From Nitrospirota bacterium (lineage in GTDB: Bacteria > Nitrospirota > Nitrospiria > JACQBW01), in the NCBI GenBank assembly GCA_016178585.1, contig JACOTA010000013.1, positions 3,183 to 67,182 of the forward strand: 64,000 nt of DNA. Direction: 5' to 3'. The position numbers were made by a program, and so were the translations under genes. Below, in pieces: positions 3,351-61,890 of this stretch. Below the pieces are notes generated by a model that worked only from the letters and a program-made list of their open reading frames with translations, ran no database searches and was not told the origin of the DNA. Every line of letters starts with the position of its first letter. Position 1 is the first letter of the stretch.

Positions 3351-3439
3351 TATATTCAGGGGCCGGTGCGCCCCGCCTTCGGCGGATGCTCCGATGCCCC
3401 CCGAACCCCGCGTTCCGCACCGGCTTAGCCGGTTGCTTC
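3351..3439 (-). repeat. F1 structured intercistronic element, copy 1 (pgsA|plsY)
   Basis: Conserved ends TATTCAGGGGCC ... CCCCGAACCCCGCGTTCCGCACCGGCTTAGCCGGTTGCTTC. Confidence 0.8.
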
Positions 3440-3445
3440 CCTTAC

Positions 3446-4903: not shown

Positions 4904-5029
4904 GTCCTGACGTTGAGAAGTGGTCAGTTGCCAGGCCGCAGAATCGAGGCAACGCAGGCGTACGTTAAATGTACGTTGAGGAAGCCGAGATTCGAGAACG
5001 CAGCAAATGGCCACTTATCGACGATCAGG
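4904..5029 (+). ncRNA. F3 structured element, copy a (candidate small RNA; overlaps the kdsC stop)
   Basis: About 125 nt imperfect palindrome. Closing stem CCUGACG...CGAUCAGG and internal hairpin CGUAC-7nt-GUACG. Shares about 75% identity with 32759-32886. Confidence 0.45.
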
Positions 5030-11429: not shown

Positions 11430-11516
11430 TATTCAGGGGCCCGTGCGGTTTCACTCCGTGAAATCCTCCGATGCCCCCGAACCCCGCGTTCCGCACCGAC
11501 TAAGCCGGTTGCTTCA
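11430..11516 (-). repeat. F1 element, copy 2 (lepA|lepB)
   Basis: Same conserved ends. Confidence 0.8.
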
Positions 11517-11529
11517 CTTCATTTCTTAC

Positions 11530-14046: not shown

Positions 14047-14727
14047 TTAAACCAACATGGCTGATTGAGACTCCGCCCAGGCGGAACTTATTTCATACCC
14101 TTTCACAATTGTTTCGAGGTTTTTCTGGAGAAGCTGTTCTTTTTTAGCGAATTTTTTCTTAATGGCTTCGTCCAACGTCGCAGTTCCGCCCGAAGCGACG
14201 TATTTTTTTCCAAACCGGTCGGCAAGCGCCTTTTCCATCGATTCCATCTTGACGATTTTTGTGGCTCCCACCAGGGCGCCTAACATGGCCATATTGGTGG
14301 CCAGTTCGGTTCCTGCGATATCCACGGCGATCTGCGTCGCGTCTATGTATAAAAGCTTTGCTTCCAACTCTCCAAGCCGGGCGGTATCTTCCTCACTGAG
14401 CAAAGGGTGATCGGTATTAATAATGACCAGCCCGCCCCGTTTCAGGCCAGAATAAAACGGCATGGTGTAACATTTTCCCTGAGTGTAGACCTGAGGGTGG
14501 TATATCATAATAATGTCGGGATAGACAATTTCGCCTCTGTCATAAATTTTTTGGTCAGCAATTCTGACATAGCTTTCCGCCGGGGCCATCCGTTTTTCAG
14601 CTCCAAAAAAGGGATTTGAAATCGCATTCCTTCCCTCTTTGTAAACGGCTGTGGCTAAAACATGCGCGGAAGTGACCGCCCCCTGTCCTCCTAACCCTGA
14701 AATTCGAACATTGATTCTTTTTCTCAT
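14047..14727 (-). CDS. 2-oxoacid:ferredoxin oxidoreductase gamma subunit, operon 1
   Basis: 226 aa. Paralogous to 33473-34174 (shared motifs GGQG, TELATNMAMLGA). Confidence 0.8.
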   Translation of the reverse strand: MRKRINVRISGLGGQGAVTSAHVLATAVYKEGRNAISNPFFGAEKRMAPAESYVRIADQKIYDRGEIVYPDIIMIYHPQVYTQGKCYTMPFYSGLKRGGLVIINTDHPLLSEEDTARLGELEAKLLYIDATQIAVDIAGTELATNMAMLGALVGATKIVKMESMEKALADRFGKKYVASGGTATLDEAIKKKFAKKEQLLQKNLETIVKGYEISSAWAESQSAMLV

Positions 14728-15644: not shown

Positions 15645-16842
15645 GGACAAGCTCCTTTTTCCTAAGATGGATTTGCTTTTTAATCTCTTCAACGATCACT
15701 TCAGGGGGCAGGGTCATTCCACCGGCAACGTGAGGGCCGGCAATCACGCGATCGTTCCGGTCAATCACCGATTTAATTTCTCTCGCCATCCAGCCGGCCA
15801 CGTTAAACTCGGGCACAAAAATGAGTTTGGCATTCTTTGTCGCCCGACGGATTTCCTCGGTGGGGAACGGACGAATGGTTTTAATTTTAACCAGTCCGAC
15901 TTTAATTCCCTCTTCGTTCAATAAACGAATCGCTTCCCGTCCTTGAGCAACCGCCGTTCCTGAAGAAACAATCAGAATGTCGGCATCGGTGTTTTCTTCT
16001 TCAATCAAGCTTCCTCCCAGGTAACGGAGCGAATATTTTCTCGACCGTTCAATGGCAGCCTTAATTTCCTGCTGCCAGCTTGCGTGGGTCGCGTAGCTGA
16101 TATAATTGCTCTTCATCACGAAGGGGTCTCTCATCATCCGGACAGGCGGAGTCTCCATATCCATACAGGGAACGGGAGAACGATAAGGGTCATAATGGGG
16201 AATACAGATGTCGGCGCCGGTTAAGGAAACCATCTCTTTGGTATGGCTGACAAAGAAACCATCGATACAAACCGCAATGGGAAGATGAACATCCGGCTGT
16301 TCAGCCACAATAAATCCTTTCAGGAGCATATCAAACAATTCCTGGGCGGTCTCAGCGTGCCAGATGAGCATTCCGGTGTCTAATAAAAATGCCATCTCCA
16401 GAGTATCCGGCTGAATATTCAAAGGTGAGTTGACACCGCGAACCATCACGTTAATCATAATGGGAAGCCTTGACCCTGCCCACATCGGAAAGTTTTCAAA
16501 CGCTCTTAACGTGCCGGGGCCTGACGTCGTGGTAAAAACCCTTGCGCCTCCAAAAGCGGCGCCGGCGCATTCACCCATCACGGCAAATTCGTTTTCACCT
16601 CTGAAATAATCCCCGACATACCCTTCTGTCCATAACTCCCCGATTAAAGCTGAAGCTTCACTCTGAGGGGTAATAGGATAAGCCACGGAGATGTCAACAC
16701 TGGCTCTCCTGATCGCCTCTTTTACCACTTCGCTCCCCGTTAAGAAAAATTCCTGCCTGGGAGCTTCGAAAAACATATATTCTGGTTGAACAAACTTTTG
16801 TCCCTTCTTATTTAACGTTCCAATCAGATTATTCCCACCCAT
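15637..16842 (-). CDS. 2-oxoacid:ferredoxin oxidoreductase alpha subunit, operon 1
   Basis: 401 aa. Pyruvate-flavodoxin/ferredoxin oxidoreductase domains. Paralogous to 35144-36400. Confidence 0.8.
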   Translation of the reverse strand: MGGNNLIGTLNKKGQKFVQPEYMFFEAPRQEFFLTGSEVVKEAIRRASVDISVAYPITPQSEASALIGELWTEGYVGDYFRGENEFAVMGECAGAAFGGARVFTTTSGPGTLRAFENFPMWAGSRLPIMINVMVRGVNSPLNIQPDTLEMAFLLDTGMLIWHAETAQELFDMLLKGFIVAEQPDVHLPIAVCIDGFFVSHTKEMVSLTGADICIPHYDPYRSPVPCMDMETPPVRMMRDPFVMKSNYISYATHASWQQEIKAAIERSRKYSLRYLGGSLIEEENTDADILIVSSGTAVAQGREAIRLLNEEGIKVGLVKIKTIRPFPTEEIRRATKNAKLIFVPEFNVAGWMAREIKSVIDRNDRVIAGPHVAGGMTLPPEVIVEEIKKQIHLRKKELVHG

Positions 16843-20534: not shown

Positions 20535-20642
20535 TATTCAGGGGCCTGTGCCACAAAGCTTGCTCGCGAGCGTTCCCGCAGCGAAGCTATGTTTTCATGC
20601 CCCCGAACCCCGCGTTCCGCAACGGCAAAGCCGGTTGCTTCA
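20535..20642 (-). repeat. F1 element, copy 3 (HDAC-like|VOC)
   Basis: Same conserved ends with a longer variable hairpin. Confidence 0.8.
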
Positions 20643-20648
20643 GCACTC

Positions 20649-22404: not shown

Positions 22405-22495
22405 TTATTCTTTCCAAAACGAATCATTTTTCAATAAACGCATCCATCCGATCATACTGGATTCTGTGACACCCGGTCAATCACCTTTTATCCAC

Positions 22496-22632
22496 CCAAG
22501 ACCAGCGATAGACTTCGCACCCACTTATTAATCATGTCATTGCGAGCACCGAAGGGTGCGTGGCAATCTTATCGTAAAGTCTTGAGATTGCTTCACTTTG
22601 TTCGCAATGACAGCTTTCTAACTCTGTTCTTG
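22496..22632 (-). repeat. 137-bp element, copy A (inverted relative to B and C)
   Basis: Exact reverse complement of 24706-24842. Overlaps the ABC-F stop and last 4 codons. Confidence 0.9.
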
Positions 22633-24528
22633 TTCTTCTATGACTTGAAAAAATTTTTCTTTCTCCCGATAAAGTTCGGGATCGGCCAGCATCGCGGTTA
22701 ATTCCTCAATCCGTTTGTTCTTCTGGTCCAAAACCTTTTCCAGCTCTGCCATCTGGTTTTTTTTGGAATGGTTTTTTTGAAACCGATTATTTCTTAATTC
22801 GGCTTCCAGCCGTTTCTCTTCTTTGGTTTTTCGGGAAGACCGGTTCGCGTTGTCGCCGGTTTTAAGCATCGCCCCCGGTTCTCTTATTCCGGGCGAAGCC
22901 TCGCCCACGCCATTTTGACCGGCGGCCTGAAGTTCTTTTTTGTGGAGGTAATAATCATAATCTCCAACAAAGACCTCCACCTTTCCATTAGAAACTTCTA
23001 TGATTTTGTTCGCGACGGCCCGGATCAGGTGCCGATCATGGGTAATAAGGCAATAAGTTCCTGAATATTCTTTTAAGGATTCTTCAAGGACATTCATCGA
23101 TTGAATGTCAAGATGATTGGTTGGCTCATCCAAAAGCAAAAAGTTAGCAGGTTTCACCAGCATTTTGGCTAAAGCCAAACGGCTTTTTTCACCACCGCTT
23201 AAAACGGAAACTTTTTTGAAAACATCATCGCCAGTAAATAAAAACGATCCTAAAATCCCCCGCAAAAATGACACCGGTTCCATCGGGGCCACCGTGAGTA
23301 TTTCTTCCAAAATTTGGTTTTTTGGGTTTAAAAGTTCCAGCTGATGCTGGGCATAATAAGCGGTCTGGACATGGTGGCCTAACACCCGCTCTCCTTTTTG
23401 AAACGGCGTCGCCCCGGCCAAAAGCTTTAAAAGCGTCGATTTTCCCGCGCCGTTTGGACCCACAAATGCCACTTTGTCTCCTCGTTGAAGCGTTAAATTA
23501 AGACAGGGATAAATAACATTTTGGTCATACCGCTTTTCAATGTCTTTTAATTCAATGACCACTTCTCCCGACCGAATCGGTTGAGGAAATTTAAATCTCA
23601 CCTTCTTTCGTTCAGAGGCAAGCTCGATCTTGTCCATTTTTTCAAGCATTTTAACCCGGCTTTGAACCTGGCTTGCCTTACTTGCCTTTGCGCGAAACCG
23701 CTCTATAAATTTTTCAGTATCCTCTATCTTTTTTTGCTGGTTTTGATAGGCCGAAAGAAGGATCTCCTTGGCCAGCGCCTTTGCCTTTTCATACTGGTCG
23801 TAATTTCCGGTATATTCGGTGAGTTTTTTTTGATCGGCCTCAACGACTTTTGTCACAAGATTGTTCATGAAATTCCGGTCATGGGAGATTAACACGATCG
23901 AACCCTCATATTTCCTTAGGAAACCTTCAAGCCAGAGGACCGATTCCAGATCCAAATGGTTGGTCGGTTCGTCCAAAAGAAGCAGATCAGGGCCCGAAAG
24001 CAAAAGTTTAGCCAGGGCCAGCCGCATCAGCCACCCTCCGCTGAATTCCTCGGTCTTTCGATTTAAATCTCGTTCTTTAAAACTTAAACCAAATAAAATC
24101 TTCTTCGCTTCCGTCTCTAAATTGTAGCCCCCCATATTTTCAAACCTGGTTTGAAGCTCGCCATAATATTGAATTAATTTTTCAAGCTCGTCAGGGTTCG
24201 TTGTTTCTGAAATTTCTGTTTCTAAAACTTTAAGGTGGTGCTCCAAATTTTGTGCATCGCTCGAAACCGTTAACAACTCTTCCAGGACGGTTTTTCCCTT
24301 GAAATAAGTGATGTCCTGGGGAAGATATCCAATGACCGCTTTTTTGTTTCTAACGATGGTCCCGGAGTCAGGCGGTATCATCTCGGCAATCATCAGCATT
24401 AAGGTAGACTTGCCTGCTCCGTTAGGACCAATTAAAGCAATTTTATCCTGCGGCCCTATCCGGAAAGAAATATCGGCAAAAAGGGTTCTACTACCAAAAC
24501 TTTTACAAATATTATTAAGTGAAATCAA
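22618..24528 (-). CDS. ABC-F family ATPase (Uup-like, two NBDs plus C-terminal coiled coil)
   Basis: Two Walker A motifs GPNGAGKST and two ABC signatures ([24 protein letters not shown]). Charged coiled-coil tail. The last four codons and the stop lie inside a 137-bp repeat. Confidence 0.85.
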
Positions 24529-24705
24529 TTACGTACTCCATTTTTTTCCGCTGTTTATCAGATATCCCGTCCTTTTAAAAATCACCTTTTCTGCGAAAAG
24601 GCAGGCAAATTATCTTTTTCGTTAACAGGGTCCTTCTTAAACATCATGATTTTAATAAATGGTATTCTTTTTTGTTAAGCGACGGTTTATGACATGTATC
24701 AAGCC

Positions 24706-24842
24706 CAAGAACAGAGTTAGAAAGCTGTCATTGCGAACAAAGTGAAGCAATCTCAAGACTTTACGATAAGATTGCCACGCACCCTTCGGTGCTCGCAATG
24801 ACATGATTAATAAGTGGGTGCGAAGTCTATCGCTGGTCTTGG
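24706..24842 (+). repeat. 137-bp element, copy B
   Basis: Identical to RC of copy A. Nested hairpins (GTCATTGCGA...TCGCAATGAC; GCAATCT...AGATTGC; cUUCGg). Confidence 0.9.
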
Positions 24843-24876: not shown

Positions 24877-25221
24877 TTGATGGAAAGCAAACCGATTTCA
24901 ACAGAGACAGACCTGCGCTGGGGAACCCGAATCCCCTTCAACCAGGAAGTGCTCGTCAACTATAAAACGTTTGGATTGATAAAGGATATCAGCATTTCCG
25001 GATGTTTTATCGAAATCAAAAAAATTTTTGGTTTGGGCCAGGATGTCGTTCTTCGTTTTAATCTTATTTCCTCGCGGAAAACTTTCATACAAACCAAAGC
25101 CAGGGTGGTCAGTATCCGACCGGGTCAGGGAATTGGTGTTAAATTTTCTTTCGATGGCGAGGAATTTCCCAAAATCATTCAACAATTTATCGACCAAATT
25201 CTTAACGACAAAAAAACATAA
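24877..25221 (+). CDS. PilZ-domain protein (c-di-GMP receptor)
   Basis: RxxxR motif (RWGTR) and DxSxxG motif (DISISG). Confidence 0.7.
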   Translation: MMESKPISTETDLRWGTRIPFNQEVLVNYKTFGLIKDISISGCFIEIKKIFGLGQDVVLRFNLISSRKTFIQTKARVVSIRPGQGIGVKFSFDGEEFPKIIQQFIDQILNDKKT

Positions 25222-29146: not shown

Positions 29147-29592
29147 GAAACGCAGGGCAAGGATGGTATTTGATGGAGCCACCGATAGGGTCTGGCACAA
29201 CTCCGGAGGGAGGTACTATTTACTTCAGATTGAATAGTTGGATGACTTCCCCCTGGGTGTTCCCCGGAGTAAAACCCTCAATGCGGAGGGATGCTCAGAA
29301 TTTCTACAATCGGGTTTTCATTCCGGCTCTGGAGGGGGACGAAGCCAAGAAGGAGGCCAAAATTGAGGGAGTCGTGTGGCACTCACTCAGGCATACATTC
29401 GCTAGCCGGTTAGTCATGGCAGGGGTGGATTTAAGGACGGTCCAGGAGTTAATGGGACACAAGACGATAGAAATGACCCTGAGATATTCCCATTTAAGTC
29501 AAAGCCATCTAAACGAGGCAGTTTTAAGACTGGACCAAAAGAAGGTTCAGGAGCCGAAACCGGAGCAAACTCCAGTTCCAACCGCCACCTAA
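29131..29592 (+). pseudogene. Tyrosine recombinase (phage integrase) C-terminal fragment, chimeric
   Basis: The reading frame holds only the catalytic tail (HSLRHTFASRL...LMGHKTIEMTLRYSHL; R, H-x-x-R and Y present). N-terminal and core-binding domains are missing. The 5' portion repeats the AGQGWYLM segment of the upstream small gene. Confidence 0.65.
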
Positions 29593-29651
29593 ACCGCCAC
29601 CTGGTAAAAGAGGGAGATATTAAAAACACTCTAACCTATTGAAAAATAAAG

Positions 29652-29725
29652 TGCGCCTGGAGGGAATTGAACCCCCGACCTACAGATTCGGAATCTGCCA
29701 CTCTATCCAACTGAGCTACAGGCGC
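29652..29725 (-). tRNA. tRNA-Arg (anticodon CCG)
   Basis: Manual cloverleaf: 7-bp acceptor GCGCCTG/CAGGCGC, D arm, anticodon stem GCAGA/TCTGT with loop TTCCGAA, T loop TTCAATT, discriminator A. No encoded CCA. Confidence 0.85.
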
Positions 29726-29843
29726 ATTCAAGAAAAGTCATTTTAACAAAACTAATCCAGAAACTCTAATACCTTCAAAAACAATAAATCAAAACCTTAT
29801 CGACATTGCGGAACCATGTCGAGAGCAAGCTTGGTGACTCGCA

Positions 29844-29862
29844 CCAACTGAGCTACAGGCGC
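29844..29862 (-). other. tRNA-Arg 5' fragment (positions 1-19) within a diverged tandem copy of the tRNA upstream region
   Basis: CCAACTGAGCTACAGGCGC is identical to 29707-29725. About 78 bp of upstream flank is also duplicated at roughly 80% identity. Confidence 0.7.
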
Positions 29863-29958
29863 ATTATAGAAAAGTCTATTTTAACAGAACGAATCGAAAA
29901 ACTCTAATGCCCTTAAAAACAATAAATAAAAACCTTTTTAAAAAGTATTATAAAGGAT

Positions 29959-31167: not shown

Positions 31168-31286
31168 TTTTTTATTGAGGTGAGCGATACATCCACAAAC
31201 GGTTAAATATAAGGTAATTCATGGGTAGAGTAAAGAAAATTGTGGAAACACCTTGATCTGATTTTGCGCCTGCCTTATGATGTAAG

Positions 31287-31396
31287 TGAAGCATCTGGCT
31301 CTGCCAGTGACGGACTTGGGAATGGTCGTAGTGAGACCGAGCGTAACGCGGGGTTCGGGGGCATTGAGAGTGAAGTGCTCGAAGGCCTCCTGAATA
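31287..31396 (+). repeat. F1 element, copy 4 (inverted on the chromosome; precedes the + strand radical SAM gene)
   Basis: Reverse complement of the consensus. Contains one 32-bp CGGTCT..GTC sub-module. Confidence 0.8.
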
Positions 31397-32758: not shown

Positions 32759-32886
32759 GTCCTGAACGTGGAGATGAGGTCAGTTGCAAGGCCGCAGCTT
32801 TGAGGGCGACGCAGGCGTACTTTGTCGGTACGTCGAGGAGACCGAAAGGCGAGAACGCAGCAAATGGCCTCGTATCAGCGTTCAGG
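32759..32886 (+). ncRNA. F3 structured element, copy b (fills a convergent intergenic gap)
   Basis: Same architecture, with compensatory changes in the closing stem. Confidence 0.45.
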
Positions 32887-33472: not shown

Positions 33473-34174
33473 CTAGGCGGTAACCTTTTGTTTCGCGGGT
33501 TTAGCCACCTGCCACCCCTGCTCAATCGCATAATGATGAGCAAAGGTAATCGCATCCATATTTTTTTGAATCAGCAGGGCTTTTTTGGCGAACTTTTTTT
33601 CAATCACGTTATCTAACGATGCGGTCCCGCCGGAAACCACAAATCCTTTACCCAAAAACCTGTCCTTGACAGATTGCTCAAGGGACACAAGATCAGGCAT
33701 TCCCATAATTCCTGCCATGGCGCCGCACATCGCCATGTTGGTCGCTAATTCTGTTCCCGCGACTTCACTGGCAATCTTGGTGGCCGGCAGATAATATACC
33801 TTGGCCTCTTTTTCCTTTAATTCTCTTTCTTCATCCTCAATAAGCGGAAGAGGCGTATCGTTGTTAATGAGAACGATTCCGCCCTGTTTAAGGCCTGAAT
33901 AAAAAGGCATCGTGTAAGACTTTCCATGGGTGATCACCTGAGAGTGGAAGATCATTAAAGCGTTCGGAAAAATGATTTCTCCAATTTCATAAATACGATC
34001 CTCGGAAATCCGCACATAACTTTCAACCGGAGCCATCCGTTTTTCAGACCCGAAAAACGGAACAAGCGTGCTTTCTCCGCCACTGACAATGACCGCATTG
34101 CTGAGAATGTGAGAAGCGGTCACCACACCCTGCCCGCCAATTCCAGCCATACGAATATTATATCGTTTCCTCAT
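33473..34174 (-). CDS. 2-oxoacid:ferredoxin oxidoreductase gamma subunit, operon 2
   Basis: 233 aa. Confidence 0.8.
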   Translation of the reverse strand: MRKRYNIRMAGIGGQGVVTASHILSNAVIVSGGESTLVPFFGSEKRMAPVESYVRISEDRIYEIGEIIFPNALMIFHSQVITHGKSYTMPFYSGLKQGGIVLINNDTPLPLIEDEERELKEKEAKVYYLPATKIASEVAGTELATNMAMCGAMAGIMGMPDLVSLEQSVKDRFLGKGFVVSGGTASLDNVIEKKFAKKALLIQKNMDAITFAHHYAIEQGWQVAKPAKQKVTA

Positions 34175-35143: not shown

Positions 35144-36400
35144 CTAAAAGCGTTTACCGCCGGCCTGAGGGAAAATATAATCCAAAATCATCTCTGTGGG
35201 CATCGACATTCCACCAAAAACACGGGGACCATCGGCAATTTCCGCGTGAGTATGCCCGTATAAGGTATTTCGCACTTCTTTGGTATGCCATCCGACATAA
35301 TTAAACTCCGGAACAATAATTCTTTTGGCATGCTTGCAAGCTTCAATTAATTCAAGTCTCGGATATGGCCGGATCGATTTTATTTTCACAAGACCGATCT
35401 TCACGCCATGATCTTCTTCAGCCTGCCGAACGGCCTCCCTGGACTGGGAAACGGCGCTTCCGGAAGCGACAATCATAATATCGGAGCCGGGATTAACGAC
35501 TTCAACTGCGCTTCCCATATATTGGTTAATATACCGGCGGGACCTTTCATGAGCGGCAAAAACTTCCTGCTGCCAGGAAGCGTGCATATGGTAACTGATA
35601 AAATTTGATTTTTGAATCGGCGCATCTCTGGAGATACGGGCCGGAGGATTTTCGTTGTCCATACAAGGTGTCGCGGCACGATAAGGATCTCTCGGAGGAA
35701 GCTTGATATCTTTAGGAGGTAATTCAACATATCCGCGGGCATGGGTCACAAAGAATCCATCGACCGCGACGACAACAGGAATATTGACATCGACTTTTTC
35801 TGTAATCATAAACGCTTTCATGGTATAGTCGAAAAAGTCTTGCTGATTTTCGGCGTGGAAAAGAAGAACTCCGGTATTTAAAAGATAGGACAGTTCAACG
35901 TTGTCCGGCTGAATGGCAAGCGGCGCATTCACCACGCGACACATCACGAGAAGAACCAGAGGCATGCGTCCTCCGGGCCATGAGGCGATCACTTCAAGGC
36001 CCCTTAAAAGGCCAGGTCCGGCTGTCGCCGTCAGCGCACGCACACCGGAACGGGATGCCCCGGAAATCGCCGACATGACACCGTATTCTTCTTCACCTCT
36101 ATAATAATCCTTTAAATAACCTTCCGCATAAAGATATCCCACCTGTTGCATCGTTTCGCTCTGAGGCGTAATCGGGTAAGAAATGGCAATATCCACATTA
36201 GAACGGCGAATCGCCTCTTTGGCTGCCTCGCTGCCGGTGATAAAAACCCTTTCCCGGGGAGCTTCAAAGAACATATGTTCAGGGGTAACAACCCGTTGTA
36301 ACGAAGCCTCGCTTACTTTTTCTTTTTTTGGCGCCTCCGCTACGGATATGACGTCCCCTTGCGGGTTTGTTTTTACTTCTGTTTCTACTCCTTCAGACAC
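35144..36400 (-). CDS. 2-oxoacid:ferredoxin oxidoreductase alpha subunit, operon 2
   Basis: 418 aa. Confidence 0.8.
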   Translation of the reverse strand: MSEGVETEVKTNPQGDVISVAEAPKKEKVSEASLQRVVTPEHMFFEAPRERVFITGSEAAKEAIRRSNVDIAISYPITPQSETMQQVGYLYAEGYLKDYYRGEEEYGVMSAISGASRSGVRALTATAGPGLLRGLEVIASWPGGRMPLVLLVMCRVVNAPLAIQPDNVELSYLLNTGVLLFHAENQQDFFDYTMKAFMITEKVDVNIPVVVAVDGFFVTHARGYVELPPKDIKLPPRDPYRAATPCMDNENPPARISRDAPIQKSNFISYHMHASWQQEVFAAHERSRRYINQYMGSAVEVVNPGSDIMIVASGSAVSQSREAVRQAEEDHGVKIGLVKIKSIRPYPRLELIEACKHAKRIIVPEFNYVGWHTKEVRNTLYGHTHAEIADGPRVFGGMSMPTEMILDYIFPQAGGKRF

Positions 36401-41883: not shown

Positions 41884-41962
41884 TATATTCAGGGGTCTTC
41901 GAGAAAAACACTCTCAATGCCCCCGAACCCCGCGTTACGCACTGGCAAAGCCAGTTGCTTCA
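41884..41962 (-). repeat. F1 element, copy 5 (FAD-oxidoreductase|gcvH)
   Basis: Same conserved ends. Confidence 0.8.
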
Positions 41963-41982
41963 CTTATTAGAATTGAATATGT

Positions 41983-52968: not shown

Positions 52969-53535
52969 TTATTTCTTTTTAATATCCTGAGAATGATAAT
53001 GCCTGAGATAACTCCGGGTAAGGTTTTTGGGGTCAACGTTTAAATATTTGGCGTATTCTGAAAGATAACTTTTTAAATAGACCTCAGCGGGAAAATTTTT
53101 AAATTGGTTTTCCTCAATTGCCACCAAATAATTCACTCCGATCCGGGTGTGTGACACCAGGTTCTGCAAGCTAATTCCCTTTTGCTCACGGAGATTTTTT
53201 AAAAAAGAACCTGTTATTGAATCGGGAAACGAAATCGGCGTTTTGAGTTCAGACTCTTTCTGAACCGGAGCCCATGGATCAGGAGAATCTGATCCTCTCG
53301 CAAGAAAGATATCATAACTTTTCCTCCGGTCAAAATCAGACAAAATGTGGTAAGCTTCCTCGATTTTCAGCCAGATGGCGGCTCTTTCTTCCTCGGAGAA
53401 AAGCGAGAGCGTTGCGAGGTTCTTTTCTCCAAAAGTCTTTTTTGCTAAAAAATAAGCGGTTTTAATCTGCTTTAAAGTCGCATCCTGCGGGACTTCGAGC
53501 AGCTCGTAATAATTAGAATCCTGGTATCTGTTCAT
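52969..53535 (-). CDS. J-domain-like protein lacking HPD, with C-terminal XRE-type HTH
   Basis: YYELLEV...AYHILSD..RRKSYD J-fold without an HPD tripeptide. C-terminal HTH GISLQNLVSHTRIGVNYLVAIE. Confidence 0.5.
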   Translation of the reverse strand: MNRYQDSNYYELLEVPQDATLKQIKTAYFLAKKTFGEKNLATLSLFSEEERAAIWLKIEEAYHILSDFDRRKSYDIFLARGSDSPDPWAPVQKESELKTPISFPDSITGSFLKNLREQKGISLQNLVSHTRIGVNYLVAIEENQFKNFPAEVYLKSYLSEYAKYLNVDPKNLTRSYLRHYHSQDIKKK

Positions 53536-53541
53536 CCATTC

Positions 53542-53616
53542 TATTCAGGGGCCTTCGCAAACGACGCTCAATGCCCCCGAACCCCGCGTTCCGCACTGGC
53601 AAAGCCAGTTGCTTCA
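53542..53616 (-). repeat. F1 element, copy 6a
   Basis: First unit of a tandem pair. Confidence 0.8.
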
Positions 53617-53623
53617 TCCATTC

Positions 53624-53794
53624 TATTCAGGGGCCTTCGCAAACGACACTCAATGCCCCCGAACCCCGCGTTCCACTCGGTCTAACTACGACCATTCCAA
53701 AGTCCGTCTCGGTCTAACTACGACCATTCCAAAGTCCGTCTCGGTCTAACGACGACCATTCCAAAGTCCGTCACTGGCAAAGCCAGTTGCTTCA
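53624..53794 (-). repeat. F1 element, copy 6b with three tandem 32-bp sub-modules (53678-53773)
   Basis: Second tandem unit. CGGTCTAACTACGACCATTCCAAAGTCCGTCT repeated three times. Confidence 0.8.
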
Positions 53795-54754
53795 CTGGAC
53801 TAAAAAGTCAAAACTTAGCTGTTCTTTTTTTAATAAGTTATGCGATATTCGATTAATCCCCTGCGCCGAAGTGGAATAGGGATATTCGAGCATCAGCGGA
53901 CGGCTCATTTTCGTTGCCCTCCATACCGAATCATCATATTCGACATAGCCTACATATTCTATCTGAATTCCAAAATATTTGGAACAGGAACTACGCATCG
54001 AAAAACCGAGCGCGATATCATCTTTTGACCGTACCTGGTTAACGATGATTTTAGGTTTGAAATTATAAATCTGTTCCTTTAATGTCCTTCCGACTTCAAA
54101 ATCGATTTTTTCCACCTGTTCGATTAAATCAAAAGGAGTTCGAATTCCCAGGTCATTTTTCTGGTCCATCGCCTGCGTAATAACGGCTTTAATCGCGGGA
54201 TCTTTGACAACTTTTTTAAACCGCCTGTAAAAAGAACTTTTGATAAACCGATAAACGTTTTCGATGGACGTCGGCTCCGGGAGGACCGTCAAAATTCCGA
54301 CATCCGAAATCAGAAAAAAATCCAAAATATTAAAAGAAGTTCCCGCCCCCAAATCAAGAATGATGTACTCAAAATCGAGTTCCTGAATCTGCCGGATAAG
54401 CTTCATTTTTTCGCGATATTTTGGATTCGCGATTTCCAAAAAATCCTGGGCCCCGCTGATTAGCGATAAATTGGGTATTTGCGTTTCGAGCAAAACTTCA
54501 TGGATGGACTTTACTTTTCCCCGTATAAAATCCGAAAGGGTGGCCCCTTTCACGGAAATTCCCAAACAGGTATGAAGATTGGCGCAGCCTAAATCCGCGT
54601 CAATTAAAATGACTTTTTTCCCTAATCGGGTGAGAGAAATCGCAAGGTTTCCGGATAAGAAGGTCTTTCCGGTTCCTCCCTTTCCTCCGCCAACGGCCCA
54701 GATTTCCCGGTTTTGCGCTTTTAATTTACCTTTAAGGATATCGACTGAAGACAT
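53792..54754 (-). CDS. MinD/ParA-family P-loop ATPase
   Basis: Deviant Walker A GGGKGGTGKT. 320 aa. Confidence 0.7.
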   Translation of the reverse strand: MSSVDILKGKLKAQNREIWAVGGGKGGTGKTFLSGNLAISLTRLGKKVILIDADLGCANLHTCLGISVKGATLSDFIRGKVKSIHEVLLETQIPNLSLISGAQDFLEIANPKYREKMKLIRQIQELDFEYIILDLGAGTSFNILDFFLISDVGILTVLPEPTSIENVYRFIKSSFYRRFKKVVKDPAIKAVITQAMDQKNDLGIRTPFDLIEQVEKIDFEVGRTLKEQIYNFKPKIIVNQVRSKDDIALGFSMRSSCSKYFGIQIEYVGYVEYDDSVWRATKMSRPLMLEYPYSTSAQGINRISHNLLKKEQLSFDFLVQ

Positions 54755-60231: not shown

Positions 60232-60359
60232 TATTCAGGGGCCCGTGCGGAGAAATGATTAAAACCATATGTCCGCTACGGGATCGCTCCCAAAGCAGGC
60301 TCGGAGGCTCCAAATGCCCCCGAACCCCGCGTTACGGACTGGCAAAGCCAAGTGCTTCA
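60232..60359 (-). repeat. F1 element, copy 7 (upstream of the 94-aa gene)
   Basis: Same conserved ends. TATAAT lies 3 nt upstream in transcript sense. Confidence 0.8.
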
Positions 60360-60624
60360 CTTTATTATACCCCTTTTGCTTTCAAGTCTAGCATGGAAAC
60401 TTATCAAAAAAAGCCTCTTTAAGTCAAGTTAAATCAATGACTTATTGTAATCCTTCAGTGAAACGGGGCGATACACACGAAAGGGCCTGGTGTGACCTGA
60501 ACGGAGACTTCGGCGAAGTTTGTTGATCCCTCCATAATGTAAAGTCCAGAAATGAGGATAACTTCGTCGGCGTCGGAGAGACGGTCATTCCAGGTCCTTG
60601 AAAACCCTTGACTGAATGGTTCCC

Positions 60625-60760
60625 AAGAACAGAGTTAGAAAGCTGTCATTGCGAACAAAGTGAAGCAATCTCAAGACTTTACGATAAGATTGCCACGCAC
60701 CCTTCGGTGCTCGCAATGACATGATTAATAAGTGGGTGCGAAGTCTATCGCTGGTCTAGG
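60625..60760 (+). repeat. 137-bp element, copy C
   Basis: One mismatch to copy B. Confidence 0.9.
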
Positions 60761-60769
60761 GTTGGCATA

Positions 60770-61129
60770 TTGTTATATTATCCAATAGTTTCATTCTCCC
60801 CGGTGATTCAAATCGTGATGATTTTGAGTCTATTTAGCCTGGGAGTCTGGTGTTCTTTTTCGGTTGAAAAAGCCCTTGGGCAGAAAGACCCTGGAATTAT
60901 TGTGGTGGATGAAATCGTCGGAGTCTGGATATCCCTTTACCTCATCCCATTTCATTGGAATCTTCTGTTGGCCGCTTTTATTTTGTTTCGGTTTCTGGAT
61001 ATTAAAAAGCCATTTCTAATTGCTCAGGTTCAATCGCTAAAAGGAGGCTGGGGGGTCATGCTGGATGACTGCTTGGCAGGACTTATTACAAACCTGTTGT
61101 TGCGCCTTATTCTTTATTTCTGGCCGTAA
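60770..61129 (+). CDS. pgpA: Phosphatidylglycerophosphatase A, N-terminally truncated
   Basis: Conserved PgpA core (PGIIVVDEIVGVW...FLDIKKP...GVMLDDCLAG), but the N-terminal segment is missing. A 137-bp repeat lies immediately upstream. Confidence 0.6.
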   Translation: MLYYPIVSFSPVIQIVMILSLFSLGVWCSFSVEKALGQKDPGIIVVDEIVGVWISLYLIPFHWNLLLAAFILFRFLDIKKPFLIAQVQSLKGGWGVMLDDCLAGLITNLLLRLILYFWP

Positions 61130-61167
61130 TCGATCCGAATTAATCCTGACGGTCTCGTAAAAAGTCT

Positions 61168-61200
61168 GAGACGGATTGTGGAATGGTCGTAGTTAGACCG
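61168..61200 (-). repeat. Solo 32-bp sub-module (CGGTCTAACTACGACCATTCCACAATCCGTCT)
   Basis: Occurs outside any F1 element, downstream of pgpA. Confidence 0.6.
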
Positions 61201-61311
61201 AAAAAGTGGTTTTTTTGTCATTCCCGTGCAAACGGGAATCCAGTTTTTTCAAGTCGTTATGTTCTCCCTAGATTCCCGCTTTCGCGGGAATGACGAATTT
61301 TTACAAGACCA

Positions 61312-61890
61312 TCAATCCTTGAAGTCAACAAACCGGACATGATCATTCCACATCGATAAAAATTTTTCTCTGGCCTTCCGGGTATTAGAAGAATCAATAA
61401 TCACGTCCAAGCGTTCATCATTCAGCGTGTTGGCGCTCCAGGTTTGATTAAATGAACCGGAAGTGTTGATTTGATCGTCAATAATCACCTGTTTAATATG
61501 CATTAACCCTTCATGCCGGTTTACCTTAATCGGAATCCCGGCCTGACGCAGGGAATGAATCGCCTTACGGGTATGCTCATTTTCCAATTCCCCATGATCG
61601 GTAATAATCCGGACGTCAATCCCTTTTTTCCTGGCTCTTATCAGCATTCTGGTAATGGGTTTAGAGGTCATGTTAAAACAGGCGATGTAAATTGACTTTT
61701 CAGCGTTTTGGTATAAAGAGATCATGTGAGACTGGAGATGGTCTTCAGGCCCGTAGTAGGTTTGAATGTCGCCGGCAAAGGCCGGTTGAATGGAGAGAAA
61801 AATAAAGGCGCTGGCCAGAAGGCCGGTCAAAATCAGTGGAAGGAAAAAAGTCCAATGACAGCGGTTTGGGGCGGACGTTTTCAGGTTCAT
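61312..61890 (-). CDS. PLD-family HKD protein (Nuc-like), secreted/anchored
   Basis: Single HxK(x)4D motif (MHIKQVIIDD) and an N-terminal signal/TM. Confidence 0.65.
   Translation of the reverse strand: MNLKTSAPNRCHWTFFLPLILTGLLASAFIFLSIQPAFAGDIQTYYGPEDHLQSHMISLYQNAEKSIYIACFNMTSKPITRMLIRARKKGIDVRIITDHGELENEHTRKAIHSLRQAGIPIKVNRHEGLMHIKQVIIDDQINTSGSFNQTWSANTLNDERLDVIIDSSNTRKAREKFLSMWNDHVRFVDFKD

Follow-up and report, generated by a model that had tools for sequence, protein, structure and literature searches.

The repeats that bracket an ABC-F gene in a 64-kb stretch of a Nitrospirota metagenome-assembled genome (MAG; contig JACOTA010000013.1 of assembly GCA_016178585.1, the whole stretch being called the window hereafter) are best explained as copies of a miniature inverted-repeat transposable element (MITE) that is served in trans by an IS1380 transposase and that entered the window in three recent, independent insertions, without the ABC-F gene being its cargo; we place the probability of this reading as a whole at about 0.88. 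It would involve a MITE of 139-140 bp, mobilised by an IS1380-family DDE transposase encoded elsewhere, each insertion of which generates a target-site duplication (TSD) of 5-6 bp. Three such events would have occurred within this Nitrospirota lineage: insertion A four codons ahead of the stop of a YheS-like ABC-F gene, giving its product the new ending TQEQS*, insertion B in the divergent intergenic region between a PilZ-domain gene and the ABC-F gene, and insertion C upstream of pgpA. The inverted orientation of copies A and B around the ABC-F gene would then be a coincidence. That two out of three copies in 64 kb come to lie within 2.3 kb is not improbable (a chance of about 0.2, by rough estimate), and each of the three copies would subsequently have incurred a flank deletion starting at, or at most 2 nt from, the MITE end.

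Positions 22496-22632 of the window are the exact reverse complement of 24706-24842 (137/137, by repeat finder and direct string comparison), and the match ends at both sides of these 137 bp; a third copy, 60624-60760 in register, has a single mismatch in 137. An earlier note on this DNA had described the perfect inverted pair, the third copy with its 1-nt difference and the distance of 178 bp from the right-hand repeat to the ABC-F start (24706 minus 24528), all of which we could reproduce, and it had rightly assigned the ABC-F C-terminus to the repeat, within which lie the codons CAA GAA CAG AGT TAG (QEQS and stop). Comparison with intact copies showed the true element to be 139-140 nt long, from CCCAAG to CTTGGG. 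An alignment of the three copies and their relatives yields CCCAAGAACAG...CTGGTCTTGGG as the unit (139-140 bp), with terminal inverted repeats (TIRs) of about 17 bp and the consensus CCCAAGAACAGAGATAG; these are perfect 17-mers in many relatives and match at 14 of 17 positions in the window (CCCAAGAACAGAGTTAG / CCCAAGACCAGCGATAG). Copy A (22495-22632, minus strand) has the outer end CCCAAGACCAGCGATAG at 22495-22511 and is devoid of the terminal CC at its inner end, which is intact in sister contigs (...GGATA followed by CCCAAGAACAG). Copy B (24704-24842, plus strand), located in the PilZ / ABC-F divergent intergenic region, has lost its terminal G, such that each of the two copies next to the ABC-F gene shows slight erosion of one tip. 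Copy C (60622-60761, plus strand) is the full element around the third repeat, complete at both ends and with one mismatch relative to copy B. Its counterpart in the sister MAG (L058) shows two internal differences from the window (GTCATTGTGA, CTTCGATGC) between flanks of 99.9-100% identity, attributable either to mutation or to gene conversion among copies.

Contigs from related assemblies reveal both empty and filled alleles of the insertion sites. Copy A is bordered by TATCCA at 22489-22494 (plus strand; TGGATA in the sense of the gene), and the second TSD, deleted in the window, is present in sister contigs. This duplication can be read from the left flank in L001-L004, from the right flank in the window and in L193-L195, and from a single TGAATA in L005, where the site is empty; the empty site TTTTGAATAAAAGGTGA at the 3' end of the ABC-F gene and the filled site, TTTGGATA-MITE-TGGATAAAAGGTGA in the same samples, together define a duplication of 6 bp. 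For copy B, the left TSD is TCAAG at 24699-24703 and the right one is deleted in the window. The empty allele, GTATCAAGGGTTCAAC, contains a single TCAAG (L002, a Logan contig, and L005), and the filled allele, GTATCAAG-MITE-TCAAGGGTTCAAC, has a clean 5-bp duplication (L003 and L192, which come from the same run, but not from that of L002), the intact L192 reading ...CTTGGG, TCAAG, GGTTCAAC. Likewise, the left TSD of copy C is TGGTT at 60617-60621, with its right partner deleted in the window; the sister contig L058 reads ...AATGGTT, CCCAAG...CTAGGG, TGGTTACG at this site. More widely, a census of about 50 paired MITE-sized copies and 13 full-length insertion sequence (IS) copies among the matches listed counted exact duplications of 5 bp at least 13 times and of 6 bp at least nine times; exact duplications of 4, 7 or more bp did not occur in it.

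As copies A and B have separate duplications (TGGATA and TCAAG), and as in L002, a contig out of the same run set, the 3' copy stands next to an empty 5' site, the two copies flanking the ABC-F gene were inserted independently, and the site is still polymorphic. Across assemblies, site B presents a nested allelic series of empty site, intact insertion, 22-nt loss and 69-nt loss. The coexistence of empty, filled and deletion alleles across contigs of one run set supports the recent transposition that the earlier note had proposed, with gene conversion as the other option, from the near-identity of the copies. As to copy number, the window has three copies in its 64 kb, contigs of the sister MAG break off within the element, and one representative MAG was matched on at least nine contigs.

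The ends of the element match those of complete insertion sequences. A TIR scan of JGI metagenomes retrieved at least five full-length ISs of 1642-1701 bp with the same tips (L166, L149, L086, L129, L133), with CCCAAGAACAGCGATAGAAGTTGTCA and CCCAAGACCAGCGATAGAACTTC as their ends; these agree with the left and the right end of the MITE, respectively, over 23-27 nt, well past the 17-mer that was searched for. The ISs encode a protein of about 438 amino acids (aa), which scores 304.6 bits against the NCBIfam IS1380 model NF033539 (cut-off 180) and 133.7 bits against Pfam DDE_Tnp_1_4, and whose identity to named IS1380 members from plasmids, ISEcp1-type elements among them, does not exceed 29%. 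Copies of a related IS type (P0128) are flanked by duplications of 5 bp (TTGCC) and 6 bp (ATCTTA). Two intermediate assignments were discarded: the two MITE ends do not correspond to the left and right IS ends, since with more ISs both proved to resemble the transposase-distal end, and L042, with TIR-like matches 2 kb apart, is not a full-length IS, its left match lying by chance within trpG/trpE genes. For the IS1380 family, direct repeats of 4-5 bp have been reported, and the terminal G of the inverted repeat has been suggested to be crucial for transposition (PMC12116815). The MITE shares with family members such as ISEcp1/ISEc9 the ends that start with CC and finish with G, and the IS with the MITE's ends encodes a protein above the NCBIfam cut-off; it differs from such ISs in having no transposase and in that about 40% of the exact duplications, among the matches listed, are 6 bp long.

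In a scan of species-representative genomes, elements built in the same way, with 75-84% identity, turned up in a number of MAGs of Nitrospiria, Manganitrophaceae and Methylomirabilota, with several copies per MAG. Family copies measure 136-142 bp, with longer variants of up to about 400 bp (TIR scan with JGI metagenomes included, among the matches listed). Searches of the literature for the motif string or for MITEs in Nitrospira returned nothing relevant, and this IS1380-derived MITE family of Nitrospirota and Methylomirabilota has apparently been hitherto undescribed. We also observed full-length IS1380-type copies located 4-6 bp from a MITE-type end (...TCTTGGG; L182:245-251, L183:149-155, L185:565-570), which suggests that an IS1380-type IS can enter beside or within copies of the MITE family that belongs to it. 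Within the 64-kb window no transposase was found, a tblastn search with the transposase of the family giving nothing below E = 1.8. The mobility envisaged in the earlier note, MITE-like and supplied in trans, is supported in its first part by TIRs, TSDs and the lack of a transposase nearby; as neither the window nor any fetched contig of the species yielded a transposase, we infer its second part for this genome.

The core of the element is a pair of modules in inverted orientation, GTCATTGCGA-loop-GCAATC and GATTGC-CACGCACCCTTCGG(G)TGC-TCGCAATGAC, and consequently folds as DNA into a long hairpin (-28.6 kcal/mol, z = -4.7). It offers no plausible gene, being crossed only by spurious open reading frames of 45-66 aa. 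Among 19 diverged copies, variation is found in the spacer and the long arm, and hardly any in the TIRs and hairpin modules; RNAalifold predicts a consensus hairpin for these copies, with a covariation term of -0.06 kcal/mol and compensatory changes in 2 of 36 pairs, and as the pairs are almost all invariant, this test speaks neither for nor against a selected fold. The same doublet core occurs without CCCAAG / IS1380 ends at L011:1437-1560, and a sister doublet, GTCATTCCCG...GGGAATC / GATTCCCG...CGGGAATGAC, stands alone at 61217-61294 of the window and is absent from the sister MAG. Given these doublets without IS1380 ends, the core may be a separate repeat captured by the MITE, and the conserved GTCATTGCGA hairpin doublet may constitute an independent selfish module riding in an IS1380 shell. 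Longer variants of 164-274 bp and more (L011:219-492, L020:3153-3384, L025 on both strands, L027:6610-6788, L033) enclose, between identical TIRs, additional nested GTCATTGCGAGG... hairpin modules or spacer blocks in duplicate, indicating that hairpin modules multiply within the element.

Short non-coding elements of about 100-160 bp with TIRs, hairpin potential and many copies are familiar from other bacteria, as the Correia elements of Neisseria, the enterobacterial ERIC/IRU and the Rickettsia palindromic elements. These bacterial MITEs are moved in trans and are mainly intergenic, but sometimes enter gene ends, where they provide new terminal codons or stops. The family described here is set apart from them by its IS1380-type ends, its TSDs of 5-6 bp (TA in Correia elements) and its hosts, Nitrospirota and Methylomirabilota.

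The ABC-F gene itself (22618-24528, minus strand) starts with TTG and encodes 636 aa (MBI1820459.1, from a Nitrospirota MAG); its 3' end reads ...ATA GAA GAA CAA GAA CAG AGT TAG, that is IEEQEQS*. This is a truncated allele. The sister MAG GCA_016195515.1 and three Logan contigs have a 100% identical 667-aa allele that ends ...NEPALDT followed by QEQS*, with the MITE at the native 3' end of the gene, and a 96% relative, GCA_043738365.1 (L005), has a 664-aa ABC-F ending ...NEPVLNKR*. Measured against this native C-terminus of the relative, the insertion replaced the last three codons; the window allele has lost a further 31 codons of the tail, and Pfam ABC_tran_CTD, found at 589-651 in P0002, has no match in the window protein. 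Both sites are free of repeats in L005 and likewise in an 81% relative, GCA_016194305.1 (L188), which share the gene order RNase D / chorismate synthase / PilZ / ABC-F / 248-aa protein / deacetylase without MITEs. What these relatives have in common with the window is the housekeeping gene at its locus, but not repeats at identical positions, which comes close to the housekeeping status that the earlier note had named as speaking against its reading. Orthologues of 650-670 aa occur at 56-60% identity across Nitrospirota and Methylomirabilota (NC10), and the GC content of the interval from repeat to repeat equals that of the rest of the window, with no compositional anomaly.

By sequence comparison, the protein is a conserved, resident housekeeping ABC-F of the YheS-like type and no resistance factor. 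In NCBIfam it matches the broad ABC-F model only, all antibiotic-resistance (ARE)-specific, Uup, YheS and EttA equivalogs staying below cut-off; the ARE models score, in bits against their cut-offs, 336/725 (Sal), 327/725 (Vga), 320/1450 (OptrA), 273/680 (Msr) and 231/750 (Lsa), and Uup NF050005 reaches 396.8 against a cut-off of 900. Against solved structures, E. coli YheS ranks highest with 385 bits (residues 12-655), ahead of YbiT (324), Uup (296) and EttA (275), and resistance ABC-Fs score at most 250 bits (PoxtA 250, VmlR/ExpZ 230, LsaA 207, MsrE 165). The hint at a resistance factor in the earlier note therefore finds no support, and with YheS as the closest solved relative and all ARE cut-offs failed, its Uup-like label and the link to transposon excision have no basis here. 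Since the protein remains below the YheS equivalog cut-off (445 vs 917 bits), we call it YheS-like and not a demonstrated orthologue. With E. coli YheS it shares two ABC domains, the linker extension (ABC_tran_Xtn) and the C-terminal coiled-coil domain, from which the window allele departs by the 31 aa missing from its tail and by ending in the MITE-encoded QEQS. Between copy B and the gene lie a promoter-like site, TTAACA-18-TAAAAT (24649-24678, minus strand; intact in all alleles), and, in the 5' leader, a terminator-like hairpin with T-run (24583-24603, minus strand; kept in the 96% relative), both of them consensus matches only. The hairpin has a 9-bp stem about 55 nt before the start codon and a different loop in the 96% relative. 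Together, promoter-like site and hairpin (24583-24678, minus strand) may form an attenuator, such as some ABC-F genes are known to have.

The 39-kb sister contig JACPZL010000070.1 aligns collinearly with the window (99.84-100% identity), and structural differences between them are found at repeats only. Compared with the sister MAG or with intact alleles, the window shows flank losses at all three copies, of 93 nt (A), 69 nt (B) and 150 nt (C), with the window-specific junctions GAAGAACAAGAACAG, CTGGTCTTGGCAACAACC and CTGGTCTAGGGTTGGCAT. At copy A, the 93 nt are gone from the inner tip into the gene together with the CC of the MITE, with a junction homology of 2 nt (CA, by exact breakpoint scan). 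This loss is in frame, taking 31 aa from the C-terminal coiled-coil domain and thereby abolishing the Pfam ABC_tran_CTD match. At copy B, the PilZ-side flank is shorter than in the intact allele by 22 nt in the sister MAG and by 69 nt in the window; the two deletions set in at one and the same nucleotide after CTTGG and show no junction homology. The lost flank held the only strong promoter-like site facing the PilZ-domain gene (24880-25221, plus strand), which reads TTGACA-16-TATACT in relatives (L005); of its two boxes, the sister MAG has lost the -35 box and the window both. At copy C, the 150 nt are missing from the exact MITE end, which removed the duplication and the first 40 codons of pgpA, including its start; the remnant (60770-61129, plus strand) is an open reading frame of 119 aa, compared with 159 aa in the sister MAG. 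The promoter-like site and leader hairpin of the ABC-F gene lie within the interval between copies A and B and are untouched by the deletions. Since the losses are anchored where the element ends, aberrant transposition (adjacent deletion) or breakage provoked by the hairpin suggest themselves as causes. It is conceivable that the MITE is now active in the groundwater Nitrospirota population and that its ends repeatedly trigger adjacent deletions, a proposal whose chances we put a little short of even.

These deletions could also be assembly errors, made at a repeat about as long as the largest k-mer, in which case the 636-aa allele would be spurious and the MITE copies nevertheless real. The 636-aa protein is on record in one NCBI record only, against four independent contigs with the 667-aa allele; an exact look-up of the truncated pgpA product found it not to be on record; all structural differences from the sister MAG fall at repeats; and three damaging deletions in one genome are in themselves suspicious. 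On the other hand, we are aware of no mechanism by which a de Bruijn assembler would generate deletions of 22-150 nt with 0-2 nt of junction homology, mis-joins at repeats would be expected to produce rearrangements and not local deletions, the 93-nt deletion is in frame, and a second, independently assembled MAG has a 22-nt deletion that starts from the same position after CTTGG as the 69-nt deletion of the window. We consider an artefact unlikely, yet a serious contender, because the record of the 636-aa allele is limited to one assembly. For the preferred reading, of a MITE in three independent insertions, the restriction of the window-specific deletions to one assembly is an adverse point, as is the occurrence of the 636-aa allele in one NCBI record and in no Logan, ENA or JGI contig. 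Further points weigh against it: the 6-bp duplications fall outside the 4-5 bp quoted for the IS1380 family; an IS1380-family transposase was found neither in the window nor in any fetched contig of the species; the full-length ISs come from unbinned metagenome contigs, with only one related transposase carrying a taxon name (NC10); and conservation of the internal GTCATTGCGA modules equals that of the TIRs, which simple decay of an IS interior fails to explain.

The other explanations concern the nature of the repeats themselves. The earlier note had seen in them a composite-like unit of 2.35 kb, which would make the interval a MITE-flanked cassette that moves the ABC-F gene and possibly spreads ribosome protection. 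As in composite transposons, two identical inverted copies do flank a gene, here along with its promoter-like site, and both outward ends bear TIRs on which a transposase could act in principle, the outer end of copy B being without its terminal G. Instead of a single shared duplication, however, each copy has its own; a one-copy allele exists in L002, with the 3' copy and an empty 5' site; the gene resides at the same syntenic position without repeats in the 96% and 81% relatives; and the protein, which was found at this locus only, is YheS-like and fails all ARE cut-offs. With a housekeeping ABC-F and independent insertions, the composite unit is therefore refuted, and we leave it next to no probability. 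Our first guess, based on the GTCATTGCGA hairpins, had been a REP/REPIN system, in which a RAYT (IS200/IS605-like tyrosine/HUH) transposase would mobilise the paired hairpins and the outer repeats would be incidental. The core is indeed a doublet of inverted hairpin modules (GTCATTGCGA..GCAATC / GATTGC..TCGCAATGAC) that forms a long hairpin like those of REPINs, and doublets do occur without CCCAAG ends (L011:1437-1560) or alone (GTCATTCCCG..GGGAATC, 61217-61294). Yet REPINs are not delimited in this way, by 17-bp TIRs, TSDs of 5-6 bp and empty/filled allele boundaries exactly at the TIR tips, and the TIRs match IS1380-family IS ends. Nor did any sign of a RAYT emerge, though no search was aimed at one. 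To our knowledge, REP/RAYT elements make no such target-site duplications. It was the duplications and the TIR-bounded empty and filled alleles that ruled this guess out, and we now hold it to be extremely improbable. Selection for a structured RNA or regulatory element, in which the core would have been exapted as terminator, mRNA stabiliser or small RNA and retained at gene ends, could account for core modules that are nearly invariant while copies differ by 20-25% elsewhere, and for an RNA fold that beats shuffled controls on both strands (z = -3.2 and -3.8). It is opposed by the lack of any Rfam match, at gathering threshold or even at E = 1, by the covariation of about zero (-0.06 kcal/mol, 2/36 compensatory), by a scan that found no terminator-like site in any copy, by the occurrence of copies in both orientations and varied contexts, and by the presence/absence polymorphism, which speaks for recent arrival and not for a fixed function; we judge it very unlikely.

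Several other features of the window also vary or repeat. Another family of intergenic repeats, each about 95-110 nt long (TATTCAGGGGCC...ATGCCCCCGAACCCCGCGTTCCGCACTGGCAAAGCCAGTTGCTTCAC) and without Rfam match, is present in 8-9 copies, some with inserted 32-nt TCGGTCTAACTACGACCATTCC units; copies lie at 3389-3443, 11465-11519, 20591-20645, 41911-41965, 53531-53797 (tandem) and 60308-60362, and inverted at 31285-31387. The tandem block at 53617-53766 amounts to about 150 nt more in the window than in the sister MAG. From pgpA to a PLD-like gene, the intergenic sequence (61148-61317) is wholly different in the sister MAG, which has CCCCCGAACCCCGCG-family copies there, suggesting that the small repeats between these genes also turn over quickly. 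At 29651-29725 on the minus strand (within 29173-29936) lies a tRNA-Arg(CCG) gene, next to partial tRNA-like direct repeats (29700-29744 / 29837-29881 and 29740-29798 / 29878-29936); the corresponding site of the sister contig has an annotated 139-aa phage-integrase fragment and an ORF6N gene, and the region looks like the remnant of an element integrated at the tRNA gene. Finally, three collinear pairs of direct repeats with 71-79% identity, about 19.5-28 kb apart (14410-14614 vs 33857-34061; 4948-5029 vs 32805-32886; 16043-16107 vs 35541-35605), probably mark two paralogous gene clusters; near 33-35 kb, the sister contig is annotated with subunits of pyruvate/2-oxoacid:ferredoxin oxidoreductase.

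The results remove the tempting reading of a mobile ABC-F resistance cassette and document a MITE family of IS1380 descent, apparently undescribed so far, with members across Nitrospirota and Methylomirabilota. For the annotation of MAGs, they show that such elements break assemblies and rewrite gene ends, as seen in the new ABC-F C-terminus and, in the window, in the shortened ABC-F tail and pgpA, and hence that differences in protein length between near-identical MAGs can be MITE footprints. Should the deletions prove real, the locus would offer a small natural series for studying how elements erode their surroundings; and if the ends of the MITE do trigger them, it would be a natural example of adjacent deletion, transposase-mediated or hairpin-provoked, by an IS1380-type MITE.

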